DNA from: Ginglymostoma cirratum
Lineage: Eukaryota
Direction: 5' to 3'
Assembly (NCBI GenBank): GCA_024137785.1
Contig: JAHRHZ010000019.1
Location: 49,875,755-49,939,754 of the forward strand
Length of the DNA: 64,000 bases
Each line of letters starts with the position of its first letter. Position 1 is the stretch's first letter. The translations under genes and the position numbers were made by a program. Shown here in pieces: positions 5,091 through 59,984 of this stretch. Below the pieces are notes generated by a model. The model was not told the origin of the DNA. It ran no database searches and saw only the letters and a list, made by a program, of their open reading frames with translations.

Positions 5091-6279
5091 AAATTGGTGT
5101 CTGTATGAATTTAATCAGTTTGCAATGGTGGAGTTTCTGAATCCAAGGATAGTATAAATTAGGAATAGTGATCATACAATCATTGAATATTGGTTCAATC
5201 CACTGAGCCTTTTCACTCATCAACAATATAACTCTTCTAACATCCACATCTTGATTTCTACTTTCAGACTATTTCTTATCCCTTCCCATGGTTTACTCCA
5301 AATTCTTGGAATTTAACTTCTCGGCTTCAATGTAGAATGTTACCAAGCAGATTTTGGAATTCCATGTTTTAGGCTATTCCTCATGATAGTGAAGGGAAGA
5401 TAGGTGCACTTTGTGTAAAAAGTAATGATTGAACAATAAGTTTTAGATTGGTTAGGTAGCACCACTGAAAATTACATGTCTATGCATTCAGTACAGTACA
5501 GAAACTTACAGCAGTCATCCTGGGTTATGTTTTCGTATGTTTCAAAGTCTACCAGTATCAGTGAACCTTTTCATTTATGTTTTAGTTACGTACGCTAAAC
5601 TAGTAAATGTTATAAACTTTTCAATGAAGTACCTTAGACATGGCATTGAAATATAATGGATTACTATTTCATGCATCTGAAACAAACTATTTGATCCCAT
5701 TTTACTCAGATCTACCTTGTGCAGCATCTTGTGTCAATTCACAGCATCACTGTCGGAACATGATGTAAATCTTCAAATTTAAACACAGAGGATGAAATGC
5801 CTAGTTTTCCCCATTATTAAGATCTAATCTTGAAATTGGAATCTACAAAATTACAGTTTTCAAATCTGTATGTTTCTGTGAATACATTAGGTCTTTTATA
5901 CTGGATAATAACCACTTCCCAGTTTGTTTTTGAAAGAATAATATTACCAATGTGATTATTAAATCAATAGTTTAATAAGGTTATTCTTGTTAAGAAGCTG
6001 TTAGTAGAGACAACAGACTACAGAATCTCTGTAGACTATTGTGAGATTGTGACAATACTTCACAGTTGCCTGCAGAGATTATCTAGTCTGCAGCTATCCA
6101 TTGGTTAGACATCACAACACATTCTTTTCCTTACAGCAAGAATAAAAATTGTCATTAAATTACATTCTGGAAGCAATCAACACATTCAAGTTTGTTACAT
6201 TTTATTAACATCCTTTCAATCATTGGCACATTTGCGTATTGTTAAAATTTCTTCTAAGAACGTGTACTTTCTTTCATGG

Positions 6280-13832: not shown

Positions 13833-13898
13833 ACCCCATATCTCTACAGGTGGCTGAGAAAGAAACGCCTTAATTGCTAACATTCGGAAGACTATGTG

Positions 13899-14032
13899 AG
13901 AAATCACATGACAACAGGTTATAGTCCAACAGGTTTATTTGAAAACACAAGCTTTCAGAGCCTCAGTCCTTCTTCAGGTCAGAGAGATAGCATCTGACGC
14001 AGAATTTATAAGTAAAAGATCAAATGTTCACA
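13899..14032 (-). mobile_element. PLE terminus, family B (single arm), with hammerhead-like core at 13949-13977
   Basis: Reverse complement cctgaagaaggactgaggctctgaaagcttgtgttttcaaataaacctgttggactataac; same family as 26817-27850. Confidence 0.8.
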
Positions 14033-15344
14033 CCACATGGAAAACTATCAGAGACCAGGCATTTTCTCAGCCCCAGGTAGGAGGGGCCCCTGTGGTGTCT
14101 GTGATCAGGGACTTCACCCACAGGCACAGGGAGGAACAGCAGCAGCAGACAGGGATGTGGGACAGAATGGCCCTCATTGCGCAGAAGCTGCAGCAGGACA
14201 GCGAGTCATGTGATCATCCATCTTCATGGACAGGTTGGCGGTTGTCATGGACAGCTAGGCCCAGCTCTGTCAGATTCTGCTGGAGTGGTACACACACCTA
14301 CATGCCAGTGTCGCAACCATTGACCCTCAGGAGCAAAGACATGGTGACAGAGGGACGGAGATTAGCGAGCACTCCTTTCCTCACCAGGAGACAGGGTAGT
14401 GCCAGGAGGTACCCAGTTGGAGGAGGAACCACATGCTGCCCCCTCAGGACACTTGAGAGGTGGCTGAGTCCTTCACCTCCATCCTCCCTATCCCTCTCCG
14501 ACACTTGGAAGTCACGTTGAGAAGGATCCACTTGCTTCCTGCAAGAAGACCCTTGGCATGCCTGACCCCATCTAAACACAAGCAGCCCCCAGGATCATTG
14601 AATCACATCTTTAAGGTCAATGGGCTCCACTGCTGTGCAGGCTCCCTGTATCCCTTCTACAGAACTAGGGAGTATCCTTAGGGTGCTGTGGGAAGGAATG
14701 GAAGAAGACATCACTTTGAGGCCACTTGAGTGGCATGGGTGGCAATGCATTGTACATTATTTGGCATTTTTTAAAAATAAATAGCTCTGCTATGACAATA
14801 CGTCTGTTTTTGGTCTCTCTGTTTAGCCCCGAAGGTCATTGTTCCAGCACGAGGCATCACTTCATGGCCACACAAAATGTACCATGGGTTGATGGCTGAG
14901 GCGAGAGTTTGCAGTAGTATCTAGAAGCAATAGGATCAAGGATATACAGGGACCAGTGGGTGCTGCTGACACGATTGCCCCTTGTCGCACAACAACTTTA
15001 TTCTTTCCTGAGTCTCTACGTCTAAAAGTATTGATGCTGGTGATGTCTGAACCAGGGAGGTGTGTAGCAAACGGGGGATACTGTATGAGGATATCTAAGG
15101 ATGAGGGACACCACTGGTTTGCGTTCTGGACAGTGTACAGATCGGTGTGTGATGTGCTTTCTCTTTAAGTGCCCTCACTTTGGTGGTCCTGTAGCCCCCT
15201 CGCTCACAGCTTGACACTTACTCTACTCACTCCGACTATGATCATAAACATTTTCTTTCCCTTTGCTCATTTTTGATTTCCACTATGATGGAAAGTGACT
15301 TAGTCAGTGGCTTCCAGCTCCTGTTTCTAGCTGTCAGTGAGCCA

Positions 15345-22390: not shown

Positions 22391-22631
22391 AAATCTTATT
22401 GTTGGAGCTACCATTCCTCCTTTTCCATTTTGCCTATCTATTCTACATGTCAAGTGCCATGGAATATTTACATCCTAACTCTGGTCATTTTACAATAGTT
22501 ATTAGGTCAAACCTATTAATTTCTGTCTGTTATTTTATTTTATTTGTTTCAAATGCTTTACACATGCAAACTTGACACTTTTAGCTTTGACAAGTGCTGA
22601 TTTTCTATGAACTAACTTTAGTCCATAATAC

Positions 22632-22879
22632 GAGATAACAAGATGTGGGGCTGGATGAACACACCAGGCCAAGCAGCATCATAGGAGCAGGAAAGCTTGA
22701 CGTTTCGGGCCGAGACCCTTCATCAGAAAATCTGAACATTAGTGAAAATCTGATGAAGGGTCTAGGCCCAAAACGTCAAGCTTTCCTGCTCCTATGATGC
22801 TGCTTGGCCTGCTGTGTTCATCCAGCCCCACACCTTGTTATCTCGGATTCTTCAGCATCTGCAGTACCTTTTATCTCTC
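22632..22879. mobile_element. PLE-derived fold-back mini-element, family A, with 14-bp TSD
   Basis: About 95-bp inverted arms (22632-22727 / 22749-22844), 3' tail on the right arm only; TSD ttagtccataatac at 22618-22631 and 22880-22893. Confidence 0.9.
22699..22726 (-). ncRNA. Minimal hammerhead ribozyme motif (PLE type), core intact
   Basis: Minus strand CUGAUGA-A-GGGUCUCGGCCC-GAAA-CG-UC; the + arm copy (22750-22777) has GAAA changed to AAAA. Confidence 0.7.
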
Positions 22880-23909
22880 TTAGTCCATAATACCTTGGTT
22901 CTTTCCACTGCTCCTCCTGATCCACTCTGCGTATTTGTTTCCCAAACACTGCACTGCTCTCTCCTTTCCTGAGTTCTTTCTCAACCTCCATCCACTCCAA
23001 ACCCATTTGCTAGTTTGAAGCTCTATCTAATGTCCTGATTATTTTATTCATCAGATAATGGTCCCAACTAGGTTTAATTGGAACCAACCCTGACAAAGGA
23101 GCTTGGTCTTCCCTCATATCAATACTTCAGCCACACATTTAATCTTCTCAAAACTTGGCTTCCATGAGGGGCTGTATGTCATCAACAATATTCTATCCTG
23201 GGCTGTTACTAGACTCCAGTCAGAACTAGAGAACCTATGAATTTGGCACTTGCTGCAACCCAACAGGGAAGCTTTACTGTGAAATTGTGCAATCTGTGAT
23301 AACCCAAGACAAGACTGAACAAGCCCATGAACCTGGCTGATGACTCGCCAGTGCTCATATGACTCACTTCTTAAAGGAACAGTGTCCCGATATAATACAC
23401 CCCAATTATAATACAAAACCGACAGCTGCAAGATTGTGTTCAATTATAATCTATAATCTCATTACTTGGCATATCGCCTACTCTTTCATTAGCAGAAACT
23501 AGGAGATCAGCTCTCCTTCAATGGAGAGTGCAGGGCAGCATGCCATGAGCAGCACCATGCCTTCCTGAAGATGAGGCCTGGACCTAGTAGAGCTACCATA
23601 CATGACAATTTGCATGCTGGAAGCAGAATGTGAAACACACGGCTAAGAAATAACACAAGCAATGGATCAAATCCAAGCTCTGAAATACAGCCACATCCAT
23701 TCACGAATGGTGGCGAACATTTGAATGAATAACAAGCACAGGAGGCTTGATAAATGTCTCCAATTTCAACATCACATCACATCATTGACAATGCTATCAA
23801 ATGACATTTGATCAGCGATACCCTGTTCACTGGTATTCAGTTTGTTTTCCACCAAATGTTGGCCCAGCCTGCAAAGCTCACATCCACGTATGAATTAAAA
23901 AAAACCCCG

Positions 23910-25402
23910 TAAGACCATATGACAGAGAAGCAGAATTAGGCCATTTGGCCCATTGAGCATCCTCTACCCTTTGATCATGGCTGATATGTTTCTCAACCCA
24001 ATTCGCCAGCCTCTTTTAGATAACCCTTCATTCCATTACTAATCAAACTAACGCTGTTTTAAATATACTCAATGACTTGGCCTCTACAGCCTTCTGTGGC
24101 AATGAGTTAGACAAATTCACCATCCTCCAGATGAGGAAATTCCTCCTCATCTCAGTTCTAGAGGGCTGTTCCTTCACCCTGAAGCTGTGTCCCTGGGTCC
24201 TAGTCTCTCCTACAAGTGGAAACATTTTCTCCATACATACCGTATCCCGGCCTCTCAGTATTCTGTAAGTTTTAATCAGATGCCCCTCATATGTCTAAAC
24301 TCCATCAAGTACAGACCTAGACTCTTCAACTGTTCCTCATATGACAAGCCCTTTATCCTCAGGATCATTCTTGTAAACCTCCTCTGAGCTCCCTCCAAAG
24401 CCAGCACATCCATCTTTATAGATAAAGGTCCAAAACTGCTCACAACGTTCCAAATGCAGTCTGACCAGAACCTTATACAGCCTCAGCAGTATGTCTCTGC
24501 TTTTGTACTCTAAGCCCTCATGAAATTAATGTTAATTAATTGTCTTCTTAACTGGCAACTGAACCTGCATGCTAACCTTAAGAGAATCCTGAACTAGAAC
24601 TCCCACGGTCCTTTGTGCTTCATATTTCTGAAGCCTTTTTCCGTTTAGAAAATATTCTATGTCTCTATCCATCCTACCAAAGTGCATGACCTCACACTTT
24701 CCACATTGTATTCCATCTGTCACTTCTTTGCCCACTTTCCTAGCCTTTCAAGTCCTTCTGCAGCCTCCCCAGAACACTACCTGTTCTATCTTTGTGTCAT
24801 CTGCAAACTTAGCAACAAGCCCTCAGTTCCTTCATCCAGATCGTTAATGTATAACGTGAATAGTTGTGGTCCCAACACTGAGCCCTTGGAACTCCACTAG
24901 TCATTAGCTGCCATTGTGAAAAAGACACTTTATTCCTTCTCTCTGCTTTATGCCAGTCAGCCAATCCTTTAGTCATGCCAGTTCCGGCCCCTAACACCAT
25001 AGGCGCAAATCTTATTTAGCTGCCTCCTTTGCAGCACCTTGTCAAAGGCCTTCTGTAAATCCAAATGGATTACGTCCACCAGCTCTCCTTTGTCTAACTT
25101 GCTCATTAGCTCTGAATCAGCCCTATTTTACCACGCACTTCTAAGTACTCTGCAATCTCATCCTTAATAGTGGACTCTAAAATCTTCCCAATGACTGAGG
25201 TCAGGCTAACCATCCTGTAGTTTCCTGTCTTCTCCCTCCCTCCCTTCTTAAACAGAGGTGTTACATTAGCCATGAGATAGTAAGAACTGCCGACGCTGAA
25301 AAATTTTTCTGAAAGAAGGGTCCCGACCTGAAACACCAGCTCCTCTGGTGCTGCCTGGCCTGCTGTGTTCTTCCTGCTCCACACTGTGTTACATTAGCCA
25401 TG
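23910..25402 (-). mobile_element. CR1 LINE, 5'-truncated
   Basis: MANVTPLFKKGGREKTGNYRMVSLTSVIGKILES; CEVMHFGR; RTEMRRNF; tail taagaccatatgac. Confidence 0.9.
25275..25390. mobile_element. PLE family A mini-element (short left tail plus right arm) within a 17-bp direct repeat
   Basis: gtgttacattagccatg at 25258-25274 and 25386-25402; degenerate core ctgaaagaagggtcccgacctgaaaca. Confidence 0.8.
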
Positions 25403-26318: not shown

Positions 26319-26426
26319 AAGTTAACACAGTGTGGAACTGGAGGAACACAGCAGGCCAGGCAACATCAGAGAAGCAGGAAAGCTGATGTTTTGGGTCGGA
26401 CCCTTCTTCAGAAATCTTACTATCTC
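26319..26426. mobile_element. PLE family A mini-element (one arm plus 11-nt opposite tail)
   Basis: Arm ends cccttcttcagaaa then cttactatctc; flanked by ccattttcaact (26307-26318) and ccatttttcaact (26426-26438). Confidence 0.8.
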
Positions 26427-26816: not shown

Positions 26817-27340
26817 GGTATGGAGGTGCCAGTGTTGAAGAGGGTGGACCAGGTCAGAAATCACACAACACCGGGTTATAGTCCAACAGTTTTATTTGAA
26901 AACACAAGCTTTCAGAGCCTCTGTCCTTCTTCAGGTGTAGTGAGAGAGGTAGTATCAGACACACATCAGTAAAAGACCAAAGGTTCATACCATTGATGAG
27001 GATGTACTAAACAAACCCAAGATGCTGTTAAATCTTTAATCATTTAGAAGGTTTTAATTGATTAATATGTATATGTAAATCCCCAAATTCCCTTCAAGTC
27101 ACTGTCCTGAGAGAACTAAAGGTTTTATCACTGCAAAGAAGAGGGGACATTTTAGGTCAGACAATGCATGTTAGGTGTGAGACCTTGTTTAGAATCTGTT
27201 TGTGTTTTGCTTTGGAGTCAGATTAGTTTTATTTCTAAAGTAGGAATTTATAAAACACCATATCAAACGACTGTTTATAAATTGTGTGCTTTTTGAATGA
27301 AATAAAATGTATCTGCAAATATAAATTCACAGCATAGATT

Positions 27341-27378
<38 letters not shown>

Positions 27379-27850
27379 AGGACGGAGGAGAGAGAGTGTG
27401 TGCGAGTGAGGACAAGGGAGAGAGAGTATGTGTGAGTGAGAGGGGGAAGAGAGATTGGTACATTACTGACGACCGACATTACTATAAAGCAGTTTCACAG
27501 AAAAGAGGAAAAAGAAACCACTGATGTAAACTGATTGTTTATTCTGGTTAGAAAGCCTGAGGACCGTGGCAACTGAAACTTAGTCCTCCTGAAAGGAATT
27601 CGGGGATTTACATATACATATTAATCAATTAAAACCTTCTAATTGATTAAAGATTTAACAGTATCTTAGGTTTGTTTAATTCATCCTCATCAATGGTGTG
27701 AACCTTTGATCTTTTACTTATAAATTCTGTGAAGGATACTATCTCACCCACTCACACCTGAAGAAGCATTGAGACTCCGAAAGCTTGTATTTTCAAATAA
27801 ACCTGTTGGACTATAACATGGTGTTGTGTGATTTCTGACTTTGTCCATCC
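26817..27850. mobile_element. PLE family B fold-back element, about 1 kb, about 255-bp inverted arms
   Basis: 26840-27097 is the inverted complement of 27593-27850; hammerhead-like cores at 26906-26934 (-) and 27758-27786 (+); TSD-like cctatcacat/cctatcgcat (26807-26816, 27849-27858). Confidence 0.85.
27344..27377. repeat. (GT)17 microsatellite inside the PLE body
   Basis: Directly visible dinucleotide run. Confidence 0.95.
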
Positions 27851-29342
27851 TATCGCATTTTGTGGCTCAGGGCTATCATCTCTATTTCCACATCGGCAGA
27901 ATTGACTGCGATGTCTTGAGGGCATTGTGTAACTGTAGATGACAGAAGGGAATAGGCCTTACCTCTCCACTGTGGAGATGATGAAATGGGAGATATCTTT
28001 GAAACAGAGTTACTGAAGTTGAGATAGTACCAGCAGCAATTACCACAGTCCAAATTCAACCCCTACGAACACTAGCATCACCTAATGTTTGCAAAGCAAC
28101 ACCGGCAGTTTCACAAAAAACGATGTCAAGCAGTGTTTCTGCTGTAGTACCATTGACCCAACAACAGGCAGGATCTGCTACTGACACGTGTTAAAGATTG
28201 GGGAAAGCAAGCACTTTGCTGGTGTTTGTCATTCATCAGAGAATTCAACTACAGCGACCGATCCCATGTGCCACGTACACATACCACAGCGAAAGTGCAA
28301 GGGAATGAGTGACCTCTGTCCTCTCTTTTGGACACAGCAAGCTGTCACAATTTATAAATACCATTATTGACTGTTGGATGCAGATGCTCTTATTGTTACA
28401 GGAGTACCCATCAAAGTTATGGGAGGCAAAACGTTCATCAACTTTCATGACTGCCTTGTTCTCTGCAAACCAGGGAAACCAAAAAATGTTCTTTTACAAC
28501 AGTAACAAACTGCTGAAGGTTTGTGGAATGTTTGCAGTTCCAATCTAATTCAAAAACACCAGAATGATTGTTATATTTTAAGTCAAAACCGGATAATGTA
28601 ACACATTTACCTGGACGCAACAAAAACTTATTCAGTCAAGTTTCAATCATTGTCTAACATAAACCGTCAATAAAGTAGAAGAATCAATGCTTATCCCTAT
28701 ACATATCGCAAATTAAACACGTGAAAGAGAACACTCTCAAATTTCAGGAAAACAGAAAAAAATAGATTTCTCGGCAGAGATTGACTTTAGGAGGCAAAAA
28801 ACACCTTGCTCAATGGGTTATTCTTGGAGGCAAAAGAATTAAAATTTAGGATGCTGTGAAATTGTTGCTAAGGTAACAGCTTTGTGCATGCTTCCAATTA
28901 AATTCCTCAATAACTTTCCTGAGGGTTGAGTGAAATTTGAGTGAGCCAGCACAGGATCATTGATCAAAATGGTATTCAACTTCTCAAAAAAATTTTGCAC
29001 TTCCTGACCCCACCGTCTTGGCTTTTTTACACAAGCCCATTATTGGAGAAGTTATAGTACTAATATTTTGTGCGAACTTGCAATAAAAGTCAGGCATCCC
29101 ACCCCTCCCCAAAAATCTCATTATTTCTCATTTAGTTTAAGAGCATGGAACTCCACTAATGCCCGTACTTTTGCTGGTCTTAGCAGCCCTTCTCCTTGTC
29201 CTAGGATGTGCCCTAAGTCAATTACTTGCAAATTCGCTTTCGGGAAAGTTAATCATCAAGTTAACCAATTATAGTTTCCCAAACAAGGCTTTCGGTCGTT
29301 GTAAGTGATCCTCCCAGGTGTCACTGCATACCACTACATCAT

Positions 29343-30326: not shown

Positions 30327-30556
30327 AAAAGCAAGATACCGCAGGTAATGGAAATCTGGAATAAAAACAGAAAGTGCTGGAGAATATCTGAGATTTAGCA
30401 GCATCTGTGGAGAGAGAAACAGAAATAACATTTCAAGTCTGACGTGATTCTATTTCAGAACTTGAAAAAGTCATATCAGACTTGGAGCATTAACCCCGTT
30501 TCCATCTCCACAGGTGCTGTTAGCTCTGCTGAGTCTATTCAGGATTTTGCTTTTGC
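30327..30556. mobile_element. Old PLE fold-back element, family C, ribozyme core decayed
   Basis: Diverged inverted arms (gcagcatctgtggagagagaaac / gtttccatctccacaggtgctg) centred near 30461; possible TSD aaagtt(g/a)ta. Confidence 0.65.
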
Positions 30557-30811: not shown

Positions 30812-30923
30812 CTGAGATAACAAGCATGGGGCTGGATGAACACAGCAGGTCAAGCAGCATCATAGGAGCAGGAAAACTTGACGTTTCGGGCCTAAACCCT
30901 TCATCAGAAACCCTTTCTGATGA
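30812..30923. mobile_element. PLE family A fold-back element cut by the assembly gap; intact hammerhead core at 30880-30907 (-)
   Basis: Left arm, then tcatcagaaa-ccc-tttctgatga (hairpin apex) immediately before the Ns. Confidence 0.85.
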
Positions 30924-40578: not shown

Positions 40579-40760
40579 TCAGAGATAGTAGGAACTGCAG
40601 ATGCTGGAGAATCTGAGGTAACAAGGTGTAGAGCTGGATGAACACAGCAGGTCAAGCAACATCAGAGGAACAGGAAGGCTCCGGAGTGAGGAGGGTAACT
40701 TCTTGCTCCTCTGATGCTGCTTGGCCTGCTGTGTTCATCCAGCTCTACACCTTGTTATCT
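40579..40760. mobile_element. PLE family A fold-back element lacking the ribozyme core, 14-bp TSD
   Basis: Inverted arms around ccggagtgaggagggtaacttc; TSD catgaattattagt / catgaaatattagt (40565-40578, 40761-40774). Confidence 0.85.
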
Positions 40761-41704
40761 CATGAAATATTAGTATTCATCTAGAATCTTTACTGTGAAA
40801 AATTTACCAAGGTACAAAGTAGAGAGGGAAGAAAAAACTAAATGGAATAGATAAGCAAACAGATGTCAAGCCTTAAAATGAGAAATTAAGAGGAGTGATC
40901 AATAATACAATGAGAGAAAAGTGATGTGAAAGGTTTTTAAATTTAGAGAGGTGTAATAGTGAATGAACAGGAACACTATGACATAGGATTAGACATAGGT
41001 TAGACATAGGATTGCTAAAGGAAATTGCTGAGATAGCAAAGGTTGAGCCCACTCACAGCTGAGGACCCAAAGTTGAGGATTTCACACTTAATGTGAATGT
41101 CAGTCTCAGAGCCAGTATGGACCAACGAGGAAGATGGGGAGGAGGGGAGATTTGGCAAGTGATATTTTGTACAGATGGGATACGGGTTGTTAAATATAGG
41201 CACGGCTAGAGCTTATGATAGGAAAGGTAGGAGGTAGCACAAAGTAATTAAAGTTGCTGGTTTGGAATTTCTGGTGCCCCTGCTTTCTGGTATGATGGCA
41301 GTGGAGTAAAAACATGGCCGAACATTTGCTTAGGATGAAGGATCCATCCCCGAATTCAAATAGAAGGTTATTTCTATGCCTCCGATAGGCTGCCACGCCT
41401 CCAAGGGCCATTAACAGCATTCATTCAAACTTGAAGTGCTCATATAACCAAAATTTAAAAATGTCTCCAGATTTCGTAATGAGACCATTGGTAATCTCTT
41501 CCATAATTAGTTATTCCATTTTACTAAAGGTTTTAAGCCTTCAAAATGCTTCAAGGGATTCTTGTCTGGTCATAACTGTTAGTTCTGGAGTTTAGGATAA
41601 TTCATACAGTTCAAGACCTGCGGCTGAATGGATAGATGTGAATCAATGACTTTCTGATATTATGCACAATACTACTTTTACTAATTTATACTTCCAACTT
41701 TTCC

Positions 41705-41858: not shown

Positions 41859-42284
41859 TATTTAATTCACTGTCAGTTCTCTTTCAGTAATGCCCAAGCT
41901 GAAGAGATTTTGCTTTTCTCCTTGACGAGATTTCCATTGGTCTCTTCTACCATCTTTATCTTCATTGTTTTCCTTTTTATTTCTTGCCTTTGATCAAACA
42001 AAACTCACTCTCACAGCCAAGTCGTCTTCCTGAAAAACTGTCTCCAGCTCCAAGTACTCCCTACCATGTTCCAACTGAAATTTCACTGTCTTTTATAGAC
42101 CCAATCACTAATACATACTGACTCTATCTACTGTATTTACCGATTCAATTTTCTCACTACAGATGCTGCCAGACCTGTTACCAATAATGTCAGCATTTTC
42201 TTATTAAATATGAGACACAAAAACGAATACTTTATTTTATTATTAGCCAGAATAACCAGCTTCTGAAGACACATTCATTATTTT

Positions 42285-43914: not shown

Positions 43915-44476
43915 ACTTTACTCTTGGATGTGGGCATCGCTGACTGAGTTGGCATTTGTTGGTTTTTGACAGAACTGAGTGACTTGCAAGGCCATTTCAC
44001 AGAGCAGTTAACAGCCAGTCACATTGCTGTGGGATAACAAGGTGTAGAGCTGGATGAACGCAGCAGGCCAAGCACCATCAGAGGATCTGGAAGGCTGACG
44101 TTTCCGGCCTAGTCCCTTTTTCTGAAGAAGGATCTAGGCCCGAAATGTCAGCCTTCCTGCTCCTCTGATGCTGCTTGGCCTGCTGTGTTCATCCAGCTCT
44201 ACACCTTGTTATCTCAGATTCTCCAGCATCTGCAGTTCCTACTATCTGTGAAACATTGCTGTGGGTCTGGATTCACATGTAGGTCAGATTTGGTAAGGAT
44301 AGCTATTACACATTAGTGAGAAGGTGTGTCATGTGACTTCTCAATATGTTCTTAATTTCAGTTCATTTGAATTCTACCATCTGTTGCAGTGGGCTTTGAA
44401 CCCAGGTCCCTAGAACATGAGCTGGGGCCCTAGATTATTCGCTGATTGACAGTACTGCTAGGCCATTGCCTCCCCA
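43915..44476 (-). mobile_element. tRNA-headed SINE family 2, interrupted by a PLE hairpin
   Basis: ggatgtgggcatcgctg (tail, reverse complement) ... acattgctgtgggtctggattcacatgtagg ... ttgaacccaggtccctagaacat. Confidence 0.8.
44034..44252. mobile_element. PLE family A fold-back element, 13-bp TSD, core at 44122-44149 (+)
   Basis: TSD acattgctgtggg at 44021-44033 and 44253-44265; ctgaagaaggatctaggcccgaaatgtc. Confidence 0.9.
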
Positions 44477-47400: not shown

Positions 47401-47774
47401 CTTCACAGCCAAGTTAAAATCTTTTTATTTTAATTAGTTAATTTGCTCTGATTCTGGAAACATTCATTATTTTTTTGAGACATCTTCACGAGTCACTTCA
47501 TTTACATGCTCCCAAAAAGTCAATATTTGTCCAGCATGACCTGTTGCTCCTAAATTCATTTCAACTGTTATTCTCTGCTCTACCAAGTCTATGAAAAGCT
47601 CCACTTTGGCAAGGGATTTAAAGCAGTCCATTTTTGAAATAAATCAATCTTGTTTGCTTTATTTCCCTTGGTTGGACAAAGGAGATTGCAGTAGCAACAT
47701 TACCCTTCAGCTGCTGTTCGTTTGATCAATCAACTAATCAACAGAGACAGATCAAAATCGAAATCTGGGGATAC

Positions 47775-47892
47775 AGTCAGAAATCACGCGACACCAGGTT
47801 ATAGTCCAACAGGTTTATTTGAAAATGCAAGCTTTCGGAGCCTCAGTCCTTCTTCAGGTATCCACCCCAGTTCAACGCCTGCACCTCCACAT
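47775..47892. mobile_element. PLE family B mini-element, core at 47829-47857 (-)
   Basis: Arm ends ccttcttcaggta then the opposite tail tccaccccagttcaacgcctgcacctccaca; reverse complement CUGAAGA-A-GGA..UCC-GAAA-GC-UU. Confidence 0.8.
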
Positions 47893-49750: not shown

Positions 49751-50006
49751 ATTTGAATAATCCTCTTCATTCTGACATGTAGTGATTAGTAGGTCAGCCA
49801 GTGAACCTTATAGACTATGGGCTCTCTAATTGGGGCTGTTAACCTGGTCAAATGAGGAAGTCCTGGCTGACAAATATAAACAAGAGAGTCAGAGGTTCGA
49901 TTCCCTTTACATAGGCCTAGCAGGGGTTTGTGGTCCATTATTACAACAAATTTACATCTGTAAAGGTGTTGGTGGAACTTCCTGACTCCAAATATGAATG
50001 CAATAC

Positions 50007-50179
50007 TTGAGATAAAAGGTACTGCAGATGCTGGAGAATCCAAGATAACAAGGTGTGTTATCCTGATCAAATCCTGATCAGAATTTCTGATGAAGGGTCT
50101 AGGCCCGAAACGTCAAGCTTTCCTGCTCCTATGATGCTGCTTGGCCTGCTGTGTTCATCCAGCCCCACACCTTGTTATC
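50007..50179. mobile_element. PLE family A mini-element inserted in the Gypsy RNase H, perfect 13-bp TSD
   Basis: atgaatgcaatac at 49994-50006 and 50180-50192. Confidence 0.9.
50087..50114 (+). ncRNA. Minimal hammerhead ribozyme motif, core intact
   Basis: CUGAUGA-A-GGGUCUAGGCCC-GAAA-CG-UC, with upstream UUU able to pair with downstream AAG (short stem I). Confidence 0.7.
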
Positions 50180-52983
50180 ATGAATGCAATACCTTCCTTC
50201 TTTATCCACATGTATTTTTGCTCTGCATTAGCCAAGGTTCTGGATGTATTGGGCCACCTATGAGCTAATAACTTCACAATGCTGTATGGAGAGGCATTGC
50301 ATGTCAACACCAGATCTCACTTGGGATCATAGCGTGCCAACACCTTACAGGATGATAGCTGTTTCTCCACTTCCCTGAAAGCTATGACTTGGCTATGTGC
50401 CCATTTCCAAGGCTGATCGTTTTTTAGGAGTTGATGCAAAGGTGCCAGGATGGAGGCCAGGTTATGTCTGAACTCTCTATAATAATTCATCAGCCCAAAG
50501 AAAGACCTAAGCTCCAATACAGATGTCAGAGCTGGGGCATCATTGATCGAGCTCACTTTATCTTCCAATGAGTGTAACCCAGTCTTGTCAACTCTGTAGC
50601 CAAAGTAGGTCACTTGGGGTGCCTGGAACACACACTTTACCCATTCTAAGGCATATGCCCACCTGGCAGAAACATCAAAGGACTATGTCCAAGTTCTCTA
50701 AATGCTCCTTATTGGTGTTGCCTGTTATTTGCACATCATCTAGATAAATGGTGACGTGGGATAGAACTTGTAAAATGTTCTCCATTGCCACTAAGAAATT
50801 GCACAAACTGACAATACTCCAAATGGCAGAGTGTTTTATTGGTACAAGCCCTTATATGTATTAATTGTAGCATTTTTCTGGGAATCCTCATCTAACTGCA
50901 ATTGCAAGTATTCATGGCTCATGTCCAGTCTTTGTGAAGGACTGCATCCCTACCAGCTTTACATATGAGTCCTCTATCCAGGGAATTGGGAATTTATTCA
51001 GCCGAGAAAAGCAGTTTGCTGTTTGTTTAAAATCCCCACAAAGGTGAACTGACCTGTTAGGTTCACAATTGGTACAACTGGTGCTGCCCATTCTGCAAAC
51101 TGCACTGGTTTGATAGTTCTTTCGCTTTCCAGCTTCCTGATGACTGCCTCCACTTTTATTCGGGAGGAGAATAGCACTGGGTGGGCCTTGCTGAGTCATG
51201 GAATTGCTTCATGGTCAACATGCAAGTTGTCCTTAGCTCCTATGATAGTCCCTAGACCTCCTGGAAAAACTTCCTGATATTAATTAGGACTTCATTCAGG
51301 CAGCCATTTTCTAATGGAAAAATGTTGATCCAATCTAGGTGAATCTTTCTCAACCAATTTTGACCCATCAAGCTCGGGCCTGAGCCTTTTACTACAATCA
51401 GTGGTAACACTACCAGCTGCTTCTCATAACAGACTGAAACAGAAGTTGTATTCTTAATCTACAAAGGTTCTCTGGTATAGGTTCTCAGTCTAGCTGAAGT
51501 CTTGCGCAAATTTAAAACCTGGAATCCACAGAGAATTTTTTTAAAAGCCTGGTCCTGTGATCACTAAAATGGCCATGCCAGTATTGACCTCCATTAGAAG
51601 TGGATGACCATTTAACCAAAAGTTAATTTTTATTGGTTCTGATTTGCAAGTTGAGAAGCAATTTAACTGTTCCAAACCCAGGGTGTGCAATCTCTTGGCC
51701 ACTGGTCTATGAGTTCTCTTACTCAATTTAGGTCCAGTGGGACACTCTTGCTGCCATGAGTCTGCGTAGTGGCAGCAACTACAATGGCTTATCAGCACGG
51801 AACCTGAAGAAATCTTTAATCATTTGGCCAAGGCTTGGCTTTGTTTAGGGGTTTTGCTGTGGGCTGACCCAGAGTCCCTCTGTCCAGGATATGTCCTGAA
51901 TGAGGCTAAGCAATTGCCTTCACTCAAGTGGTGTTCTCTGAGTACAGTCAGGCTTGCGAGGGTGTCCACTTTCATTGGAATGCCCTGCAAACTCGCAAAA
52001 GGTGCAGGAGCAAAATGTGCCCGGCTCCTTGATTACTTTTCTGACTGTTCTGGAATCTGTAGGTTCTCCCTCTCTGTCAAACGTTGAATATACTTTGGAA
52101 TTTGAGATGGACATGATGGATGTTACCACCTCAACGCCTTTGCTGCTTGAAGAGAAGAATCAATTTCTTGTGAGACGGTCTGGGCACAAGAGGCAAGCTA
52201 CTGTGCGTTACACACTGTCTGTATCAGAGGCAGAGTTGGAGGAACCTGACCTGGTGCTAAAATGCCCCAGGAGGAGCTACAAGAGAAAGAACCAGCTTAT
52301 ATTCTTGGTCTCAGAGGGGGAGCGATGTAATGATTGTAATGTGGTCAGCCAGGTCGACCTCATGGAATATGAGTTCCCTGAATGGACCAAGTCAACAAAT
52401 CCAGTCAGAGAGCCCTGGCTGACAGATAAGAGCAGGAGTGTCAGAAGTTCCGTTCATTCGAAGAGCTGGATCAGTGTCTAGGACTCTCCACGTGTAAATG
52501 AAGAGCAACTTGGTGACAGGATACTGGCCTCTGTGGAGTTATTTCATGACTTTTTGCATGAATCTGAAAATATTCAAATAATAAATGGCTAATGAAATTC
52601 CACCAGTTGTTTCTAAGAATTAAACAACGCTCACTGCACTGACCGTTACCAATCTGGATATTGTCAAAAATGAAAACAAGCAGAATAACGTTCTAAATGC
52701 AACACAAAGCAAGCGCTATTTTCTTGGCAGAGGTTATTCAGGCTTTCCACCCTGTCACCTGATATGGTAATGGGGGTATATTTCTCTATTGCTCACAGCA
52801 ACCCCAAAGTCAAACTGCCCAAGGATCATTAAATGACTGGAGATGGGACTTCTGCTCCTCATTTCTCAGGATGCAATCTGATGGGACTCCATAATCCCAG
52901 TAGAGCCTGCAGGATAAGAGACTAGGACTGGAACTACATGTGGTCCACAGACCCTATGTTCCGAAATCCAGGACCAGTTAAGT

Positions 52984-53075
52984 GTAACACAGTGTGGAGC
53001 TGGAGGAACACAGCAGGCCAGGCAGCATCAGAGAAGCAGGAAAGTTGACGTTTCGGCTTGGGACCCTTCTTCAGA
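52984..53075 (-). mobile_element. PLE family A single arm, core at 53047-53074
   Basis: Reverse complement ctgaagaagggtcccaagccgaaacgtcaac. Confidence 0.8.
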
Positions 53076-59783: not shown

Positions 59784-59984
59784 TGATGTGGAGGTGCCAA
59801 AGTAGGACTGATGTGGACAAACTTACGCAACACCAGGTTAAAGTCCAATAGGTTTGTTTGAAATCACAAGCTTTCGGAGTGCAGCTCCTTCGTCAGGGGA
59901 AATTATGAAGAAGCAGCGCTCTGAAAGCTTGTGATTTCAAATAAACCTGTTGGAATATAACCTGGTGTCGTGTGACTTCTGACT
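59784..59984. mobile_element. PLE family B fold-back mini-element
   Basis: Inverted arms around ggggaaatt; TSD-like gcatgaatatctg / gtatgactatctg (59771-59783, 59985-59997). Confidence 0.85.
59868..59896 (-). ncRNA. Minimal hammerhead ribozyme motif, family B, core intact
   Basis: Minus strand CUGACGA-A-GGAG-CUGCA-CUCC-GAAA-GC-UU; 4-bp stem II. Confidence 0.7.

Follow-up and report, generated by a model that had tools for sequence, protein, structure and literature searches.

Short hammerhead-bearing arms in the window

The window, by which we mean the whole 64,000-nt stretch of Ginglymostoma cirratum DNA analysed here (from a genome of 4.36 Gb in 289 contigs, with repeats that seem similar to those of cartilaginous fishes), contains a number of short insertions that carry a hammerhead core. 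All positions within these insertions are given relative to nucleotide C3 of the hammerhead (C3 = 0), and on this scale the family-A cleavage site lies between +27 and +28. At 50083-50179 (plus strand) there is a family-A short arm that runs from -4 to +92 and has an untailed 3' end, with C3 at 50087 and the predicted cleavage site at 50114/50115. Its inverted partner, found with blastn at 50009-50057 (minus strand), consists of the tail part alone (approximately +80 to +128). The sequence between the two (50058-50082) shows a short internal repeat and is likely an end-joining filler. A 13-bp TSD, read on the plus strand, flanks the insertion (left copy at 49994-50006, right copy at 50180-50192).

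Other family-A insertions lie elsewhere in the window. An untailed arm from -3 (22632-22729, minus) is separated by a 19-nt filler from a tailed partner from -1 (22749-22879, plus), with a 14-bp TSD at 22618-22631 and 22880-22893. The palindrome at 44034-44252, whose arms start at approximately -2 (minus) and at -3 (plus, 44119), overlaps at its centre and has a 13-bp TSD; the insertion at 26319-26426 (minus) comprises an arm from -4 (26415) and an 11-nt inverted tail end, and has a 9-bp TSD. At 30814-30923, an arm from -3 (30910, minus) faces a plus-strand partner, also from -3 (30914), of which a stub of 10 bases is readable. Family B contributes an arm from -5 (47769-47862, minus, starting at 47862) and a palindrome at 59825-59984, with a minus arm from -1 (59897) and a plus arm from within the core.

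The first-pass annotation had presented the arms at 50083+, 22729-, 44119+, 30914+, 26415-, 47862- and 59897- as independent insertions that consistently begin at the edge of the core. The arms are real, with the starts given above, and since their TSDs (13, 14, 13 and 9 bp) and centre fillers differ, the insertions are indeed independent. "Consistently", however, was too strong: the start position recurs genome-wide (see below), but three long family-B arms and a family-A pair from +33 in this same window had been omitted. The pair is the palindrome at 40581-40761 (40676-/40700+), the filler of which matches the 5' UTR of the element (+179 to +203). The long family-B arms extend approximately 170 nt upstream of the core in 27758+ (27590-27851, plus), approximately 160 nt in 26934- (26841-27096, minus) and 58 nt in 13977- (13890-14035, minus). 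Also absent from the first-pass annotation were two older family-A arms, one from -3 with an inverted tail piece upstream (25306-25393, plus) and a solo arm from -1 (52985-53075, minus), as well as two degenerate family-C arms (at 42142, plus, and near 30460, minus), one of which starts at -4 and one at approximately +31.

The arms derive from Penelope-like retroelements

A scan for minimal type I hammerheads (CUGAnGA, GAAA and UH, with stem II required and a palindromic stem III) gave 56 hits, which comprise four families and a few chance hits. Pattern matches numbered 226 for family D and 84 for family B, and an Rfam search of the window returned no hammerhead match.

The short arms are 5'-truncated copies of Neptune-type Penelope-like retroelements (PLEs). 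Going upstream from the core, long family-A copies have a pyrimidine-rich 3' UTR and then an ORF with RT, cysteine linker and GIY-YIG. The 747-aa frame of one copy (L108) matched RVT_1 (E=8.7e-6) and GIY-YIG (E=3.8e-4), both slightly below the Pfam curated cut-offs, and the motifs YIDD and YIGET are visible in it. The family-A protein search yielded 59,722 candidates, with identities of 97-100% in the 150 scored. The unit formed by hammerhead and tail was present at the 3' end in 30/30 RT loci of family A, and 5' of the ORF in 9 of the 30 N-terminal loci that were reached by walking to the family-A N-terminus. Family A thus shows the pLTRs formed by partial tandem that characterize EN+ Penelope-like elements. 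Another trait of EN+ PLEs, an inverted 5'-truncated copy with an optional 30-40 bp tail on one end, is also present: there are 34 inverted pairs, 30 of which have exactly one tail. From the ORF domains and the hammerhead-tail unit 5' of the ORF, family A is read as a young Neptune-type PLE with pLTRs. Family C, judging from its sequence, is of Neptune type too; the cysteine motif between RT and EN is CNRRKCDTC in family A and CNRQRCSTC in family C. No cysteine linker between RT and EN was seen in the family-D copies read, and family D is probably of Poseidon type, like the Anolis Poseidon element (PAc). The PAc ORF starts at stem II (PMC11167929), where the family-D ATG also sits, whereas the family-A ATG lies approximately 170 nt past the core. 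The link to an ORF was established for families A, C and D.

Two other classes were rejected. Retrozymes are defined by head-to-tail tandem repeats with a hammerhead in each (bioRxiv 10.64898/2026.07.22.740005), and the copies found here are solo or head-to-head, with just three two-unit tandems, which speaks against a non-LTR retrozyme. A SINE- or MITE-like single master copy is ruled out by the 43 distinct 15-nt junction flanks seen among 45 young short arms.

A sharp 5' boundary beside the hammerhead core

The starts of the arms were mapped in an unbiased way in 1.11 Mb of readable DNA (1,584,000 bases including 475,822 N), in stretches from approximately 30 contigs, 20 of the stretches being sited beside known long copies to avoid N. 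Arms were located using only sequence downstream of +40, and then extended upstream against real long copies. After removal of 13 family-C arms and 22 ending in N or at an edge, the 198 arm sites left 163 family-A arms. Their starts lie beyond -50 in 39 cases, at -49 to -8 in 4, at -7 to +1 in 64, at +2 to +39 in 43, and at +40 or further downstream in 13. The excess at -7 to +1 is highly significant against both flanks (P=2e-43 against -49 to -8; P=2e-20 against +2 to +39); the upstream edge is sharp, and the downstream starts are scattered. As the first-pass annotation had noted, the core is retained and the cleavage site is not the boundary: only 2 of the 163 arms start there (+27 to +29), with 3.4 expected from the local background.

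The same edge is seen in exact matches across the genome. The core of young family A occurs 51,102 times, and the number of matches falls to 46,336 when the pattern is extended to -3, 35,387 to -4, approximately 31,494 to -5 (counted with a pattern one base shorter at the 3' end) and 26,883 to -7. The loss at the -3/-4 step is 23.6% per base, compared with a background of 1.3% over -7 to -14 (14,987/16,461). The excess loss between 0 and -7, most of it at -3/-4, amounts to approximately 20,300 young cores, or 40% of the 51,102, although assembly gaps have cut or doubled some of the arms counted. By eye, the first 30 genome matches comprised 21 long copies, one cut by N and 8 short ones, two of the latter being one junction seen on either side of a gap. 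Breakpoints are hence non-uniform both in the sampled stretches, with the peak at -7 to +1, and in the exact genome counts, with the step at -3/-4. Raw reads contain inverted joints at -5 to +1, and the boundary is therefore not an assembly artefact. Fixed-size N runs often occupy palindrome centres, with an identical junction on either side, so that young palindromes have likely been collapsed or doubled in the assembly.

The first-pass annotation had seen the boundary in more than one sequence family, and it does recur in A, C and part of B. In family C, 36 of the 83 scored arms start at -7 to +1, with the mode at -3 and a single arm at the family-C cleavage site. Family B, quantified for the window and a few loci, is mixed in the window, with boundary arms and the three long arms. 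In family D, by contrast, 7/7 arms that reach the core continue for at least 71 nt upstream and none stops at the boundary (0/7; P=0.002 against family A), a figure that rests on the 7 arms left from 10 anchored sites after 3 were dropped as spurious or starting past the core. Within family A, boundary arms are commoner in the older than in the young subfamily (30/36 vs 12/29), which may reflect loss of long copies or the assembly collapse of young palindromes. Of 12 near-full-length copies, 2 start at -5/-4 (L167 and L177), 4 further upstream and 6 further downstream. Two of these six (L179 and L181, at oriented positions of approximately 800-820) begin on or beside the cleavage site, which suggests that cleaved RNA may occasionally serve as template.

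Pairing rules and signs of probable run-off

Among the 34 inverted pairs, both arms stop at the boundary in 11, both are long in 7 and both start downstream in 7; 6 combine a boundary and a downstream arm, 3 a long and a downstream arm, and none a long and a boundary arm. When both arms reach the core, they are concordant in every case (11 boundary, 7 long, 0 mixed; n=18 pairs, P=8e-6), and the inverted partners beside RT-bearing arms were long in all seven inspected (7/7). Since the arms of a pair agree, stopping at the boundary is a property of the event and not of each RT passage. One arm is tailed and the other untailed in 30/34 pairs (ends at approximately +129 and +95; P=3e-6), which, by analogy, would fit a pair of RT active sites, each beginning at one end of the tail. 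The arms within a pair are also more alike than in shuffled pairs (0.86 vs 0.77, with a maximum of 0.80 in 300 shuffles).

The sequence past approximately +135 occurs only after the upstream pLTR, and arms that run past the tail into it start at the boundary in 4/4 unselected cases and 6/7 overall (unselected, -2, -5, 0 and +1; picked because short, -3 and -1; picked for RT, -90); one further such arm was cut by N. Three past-tail arms are tandems, which extend from the boundary to +162, +263 or +288 and are directly followed by a second arm from boundary to tail. This reads as a run-off, a jump and a second run-off in one insertion. These two-unit direct tandems (L264, L091/L092 and L069/L070), in which the first unit reaches 160-290 nt past the core, are possibly the seeds of retrozyme-like arrays.

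Where an arm starts at -3, the preceding base is often T in place of the native A(-4): in 9/11 cases in family C (P=0.008), 17/19 in young family A and 14/19 in sampled family A, while T is found at that place before 6/43 downstream starts. This is expected if the RT adds an untemplated A at the end of its template; in family A, slippage in the T run can also give an extra T. A G, such as a cap could leave, precedes 5/8 young -4 starts (nominal P=0.03), although it may be supplied by the partner arm, the TSD or the filler, and it was therefore given no weight as a sign of a capped end.

What sets the boundary

Minimal hammerheads are reported to need dimers or protein, and the predicted monomer fold in families A, B and C is not a hammerhead. 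In young family A, the core (+2 to +18) is instead predicted to pair with the tail (approximately +110 to +125), closing the whole arm into one domain. By inspection, the four differences between young and older family A (L189; 22749-22879 vs 44119-44252) would all strengthen this core-tail helix, and the older subfamily's tail lacks most of its pairs. In read-through RNA, the start of the core is predicted to be sequestered (pair probability 0.5-0.9) by the complementary family-A segment at approximately -30 to -22, so that, in the model, an RNA would escape this pairing only if it started near -5. A word similar to this segment is visible upstream of the family-D core.

The first-pass annotation had proposed that the folded, uncleaved hammerhead stalls the RT, or triggers a strand switch, at the stem-I border. 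The boundary does match the 5' strand of stem I and the cleavage site is unused; concordant pairs, moreover, would be possible if each RNA were either wholly folded or not at all and served as template for both cDNAs. The absence of mixed pairs (0/18) is nonetheless unlike a per-passage pause, and the strength of stem I has no effect, starts being distributed alike in the subfamilies with a 2-bp and a 3-4-bp stem I (30 vs 12 arms, P=0.49, at low power). The geometry is also unfavourable. The first strands that an RT would open are the 3' ones of stems I and II, and having copied the stem-I 3' strand (+28 to +31) before it reaches -1 to -4, it should find the helix already gone, while the pyrimidine-rich upstream sequence offers no helix with its 3' edge at -4. 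With family D lacking a boundary despite an equally clear hammerhead, and run-offs repeated within one insertion, we hold this proposal to be very improbable. Equal starts across the stem-I subfamilies, the monomer fold and the RT geometry together favour a transcription start and leave a structural RT stop with a low probability. Alternatively, the ribozyme region could set the boundary as a nuclease barrier, if the RNA were longer at first and a 5'-3' exonuclease trimming it were halted at -3 to -6 by the hammerhead-tail domain, folded or bound by protein. Trimming would explain pair concordance, run-off and the untemplated A equally well, the boundary coincides with the stem-I border in A, B and C, and the predicted core-tail pairing would provide a single domain in young family-A arms. 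There is a parallel in R2, where an HDV-like ribozyme fold protects template 5' ends (PMC11371274). The boundary is the same, however, where stem I has 2 bp, the older subfamily, poor in core-tail pairs, has the higher share of boundary arms, and family D has the hammerhead without the boundary. Such trimming is, in our judgement, rather unlikely.

Two further explanations were weighed. Truncation might occur anywhere, with no special RNA end and with end-joining or fold-back favouring self-complementary words near the core (TTTC/GAAA, TCAG/CTGA); several pairs overlap at their centre by 3-15 nt of such words, and palindromic junctions of rotifer PLEs have been read as self-priming (PMC3846280). 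Yet 28 of the 64 boundary arms have no detected inverted element sequence within 70 nt (in some, the partner may be a tiny tail piece or lie in N), and young solo arms directly abut their TSD. A joining bias, which we regard as improbable, explains neither the absence of pairs with one long and one boundary arm nor why family C, with a different upstream sequence, shows an identical offset. Otherwise the ATT that immediately precedes the core might be a target, in cDNA or DNA, of the element's own GIY-YIG endonuclease, given that the anole enzyme prefers 5'-ATT-3' (PMC11167929) and that family A carries ATTT at -4 to -1. Since the boundary is also shown by families C and B, which carry AGTT and ACAC, respectively, at this place, since there is no peak at the other ATT words of the element near -30, and since the flanks of young 3' ends are only mildly AT-rich (65%, n=35), such cutting is hardly credible.

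Splicing was also rejected. Pyrimidine tracts with CAG do occur upstream of the core in families A and C, but short arms share no upstream exon, and they abut TSDs or partners. A stop at a branch point formed by A(-4) was likewise rejected, there being, by inspection, no branch consensus or fitting acceptor. Just upstream of the family-C core (copies L047/L048 and L087/L088), a branch-like word, a pyrimidine tract and CAG recall the D. virilis intron that ends at helix I.

A strong-stop-like reading

The boundary, the pairing rules and the element anatomy are direct observations, and uncut RNA is likely the usual template. With moderate confidence, we read the short arms as strong-stop-like run-off cDNAs, made from tail sites of the upstream pLTR to the 5' end of the uncleaved RNA, which would be the TSS. 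RT would start at the tail sites of the upstream pLTR, approximately 95 and 130 nt past the hammerhead core, and the RNA would owe its 5' end to transcription beginning at an initiator-like CA at -5/-4. An insertion may begin with a staggered cut by the endonuclease, for which there are the observed TSDs; each DNA end would then prime on one of the two tail sites, in the same pLTR copy. In the upstream pLTR, both cDNAs would reach the end of the RNA after 100-135 nt and run off, in many cases with an added untemplated A, whereas in the downstream pLTR both would continue into the ORF and be truncated at scattered points. The joining of cDNA ends by microhomology or filler synthesis, with some trimming, could finally produce the palindromes and the scattered starts within the core.

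The first-pass annotation had named a coincidence with a PLE transcription start as the alternative to its own proposal. An RNA 5' end at this place fits the data best, the RNA start itself being a prediction. The word YYANWYY, which we take to be an initiator-like consensus, is present with its A at -4 in families A and C and in the long family-B copies of the window; some family-B copies are without the CA. Since the A of the initiator doubles as the outermost base of stem I, position alone cannot decide. The modal start, -3, is one base short of the predicted +1 at -4, and some starts reach -6. No pile-up of RNA-seq starts was seen in unstranded poly(A) data, which carry no strand or cap information and in which 90% of the reads come from other genomic copies. 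A DPE-like ACGT lies approximately 28 nt past the predicted start; being a conserved word of the ribozyme itself, it was not counted as support.

Retroviral minus-strand strong-stop DNA is produced by priming near the RNA 5' end followed by run-off, and in L1 twin priming both DNA ends prime, giving an inversion. The present element would work in a similar way but belongs to neither class: tRNA primer, LTR and poly(A) tail are absent here, and arms start at defined internal sites.

Comparison with known elements

The families share many traits with the Neptune-clade EN+ PLEs of Craig et al. 2021 (PMC8557442), namely an RT with a C-terminal GIY-YIG, a cysteine-rich linker, partial-tandem pLTRs with a hammerhead, and an inverted 5'-truncated copy with an optional 30-40 bp tail. 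The 5' truncation is described as variable in those elements, and the accessible text describes neither a sharp edge 3-6 nt before the core nor double arms of 100-135 nt, a major product here. PLE promoters are reported to be internal, with a start in the pLTR (PMC8557442, for Chlamys-3; PMC2377424); that of Drosophila Penelope is TATA-less (Schostak et al. 2008, PMC2377424). In D. virilis Penelope, 46 nt and a 75-nt intron, which runs up to helix I, separate the start from the hammerhead (PMC2377424, PMC4209133), whereas the start inferred here adjoins helix I. This more upstream start, and the lack of precedent for a cap-proximal hammerhead in the literature consulted, argue against the transcription-start reading.

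In vitro, the anole Poseidon element PAc uses two internal RT start sites that bound the tail (Frangieh et al. 2024, PMC11167929), matching the tailed and untailed arms of the 30/34 pairs. Both strands are cut and extended, a dimer is predicted, and uncleaved RNA is used; RNA ends at the cleavage site are absent, and hammerhead mutants leave insertion unchanged, so ribozyme cleavage is dispensable there. The main text maps RT starts and not a 5' stop, and Fig. S2 of that paper, genomic coverage across the anole pLTR, may bear on novelty. The minimal hammerheads of metazoan PLEs (Cervera and de la Pena 2014, PMC4209133) resemble ours in the CUGAnGA core, stem II, palindromic minimal stem III and short stem I, and many solo motifs, as well as opposite-strand pairs 100-700 bp apart, were noted there. 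That study proposes cleavage and circularisation for new copies, whereas the new copies found here almost never begin at the cleavage site.

A search of the open literature (Repbase, Dfam and subscription papers aside) turned up no account in PLEs of twin priming, of strong-stop products or of a 5' boundary at a set position. The component parts are known; neither this boundary nor the pairing rules came up in that search. The results touch on how PLEs integrate, on the origin of their inverted and tandem structures and on the role of the hammerhead. Tens of thousands of young insertions supply in vivo rules for PLE integration: each event leaves a tailed and an untailed arm, both taken from one class of template position, the 5' edge beside the core is hard, and the cleavage site is almost unused. 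They also yield a prediction of the RNA start to the single base and a simple in vitro test. According to Schostak et al., no mechanism for the regeneration of the pseudo-LTR is obvious (PMC2377424). A wider scheme, to which we give little credence as a whole, would place the hammerhead in the first 30-odd bases of Neptune transcripts, with a dimeric RT that primes both target ends on the two neighbouring tail sites and strong-stop cDNAs that jump templates. The segment from -4 to +130 would then resemble a retroviral R region, the pseudo-LTR would be restored by transfer to the downstream pLTR, and cleavage would serve as a cap-removing switch and not as a step in mobilisation.

The boundary arms also account for a short palindrome that is very common and is misread by scanners for repeats and microRNAs. 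In the window, the microRNA-like Rfam matches at 59837-59963 and 44062-44184, below the gathering score, are the palindromes themselves and were rejected. A match to the mir-216 precursor lies at 6015-6089 (minus strand), with 56.7 bits against an Rfam gathering score of 53.5.
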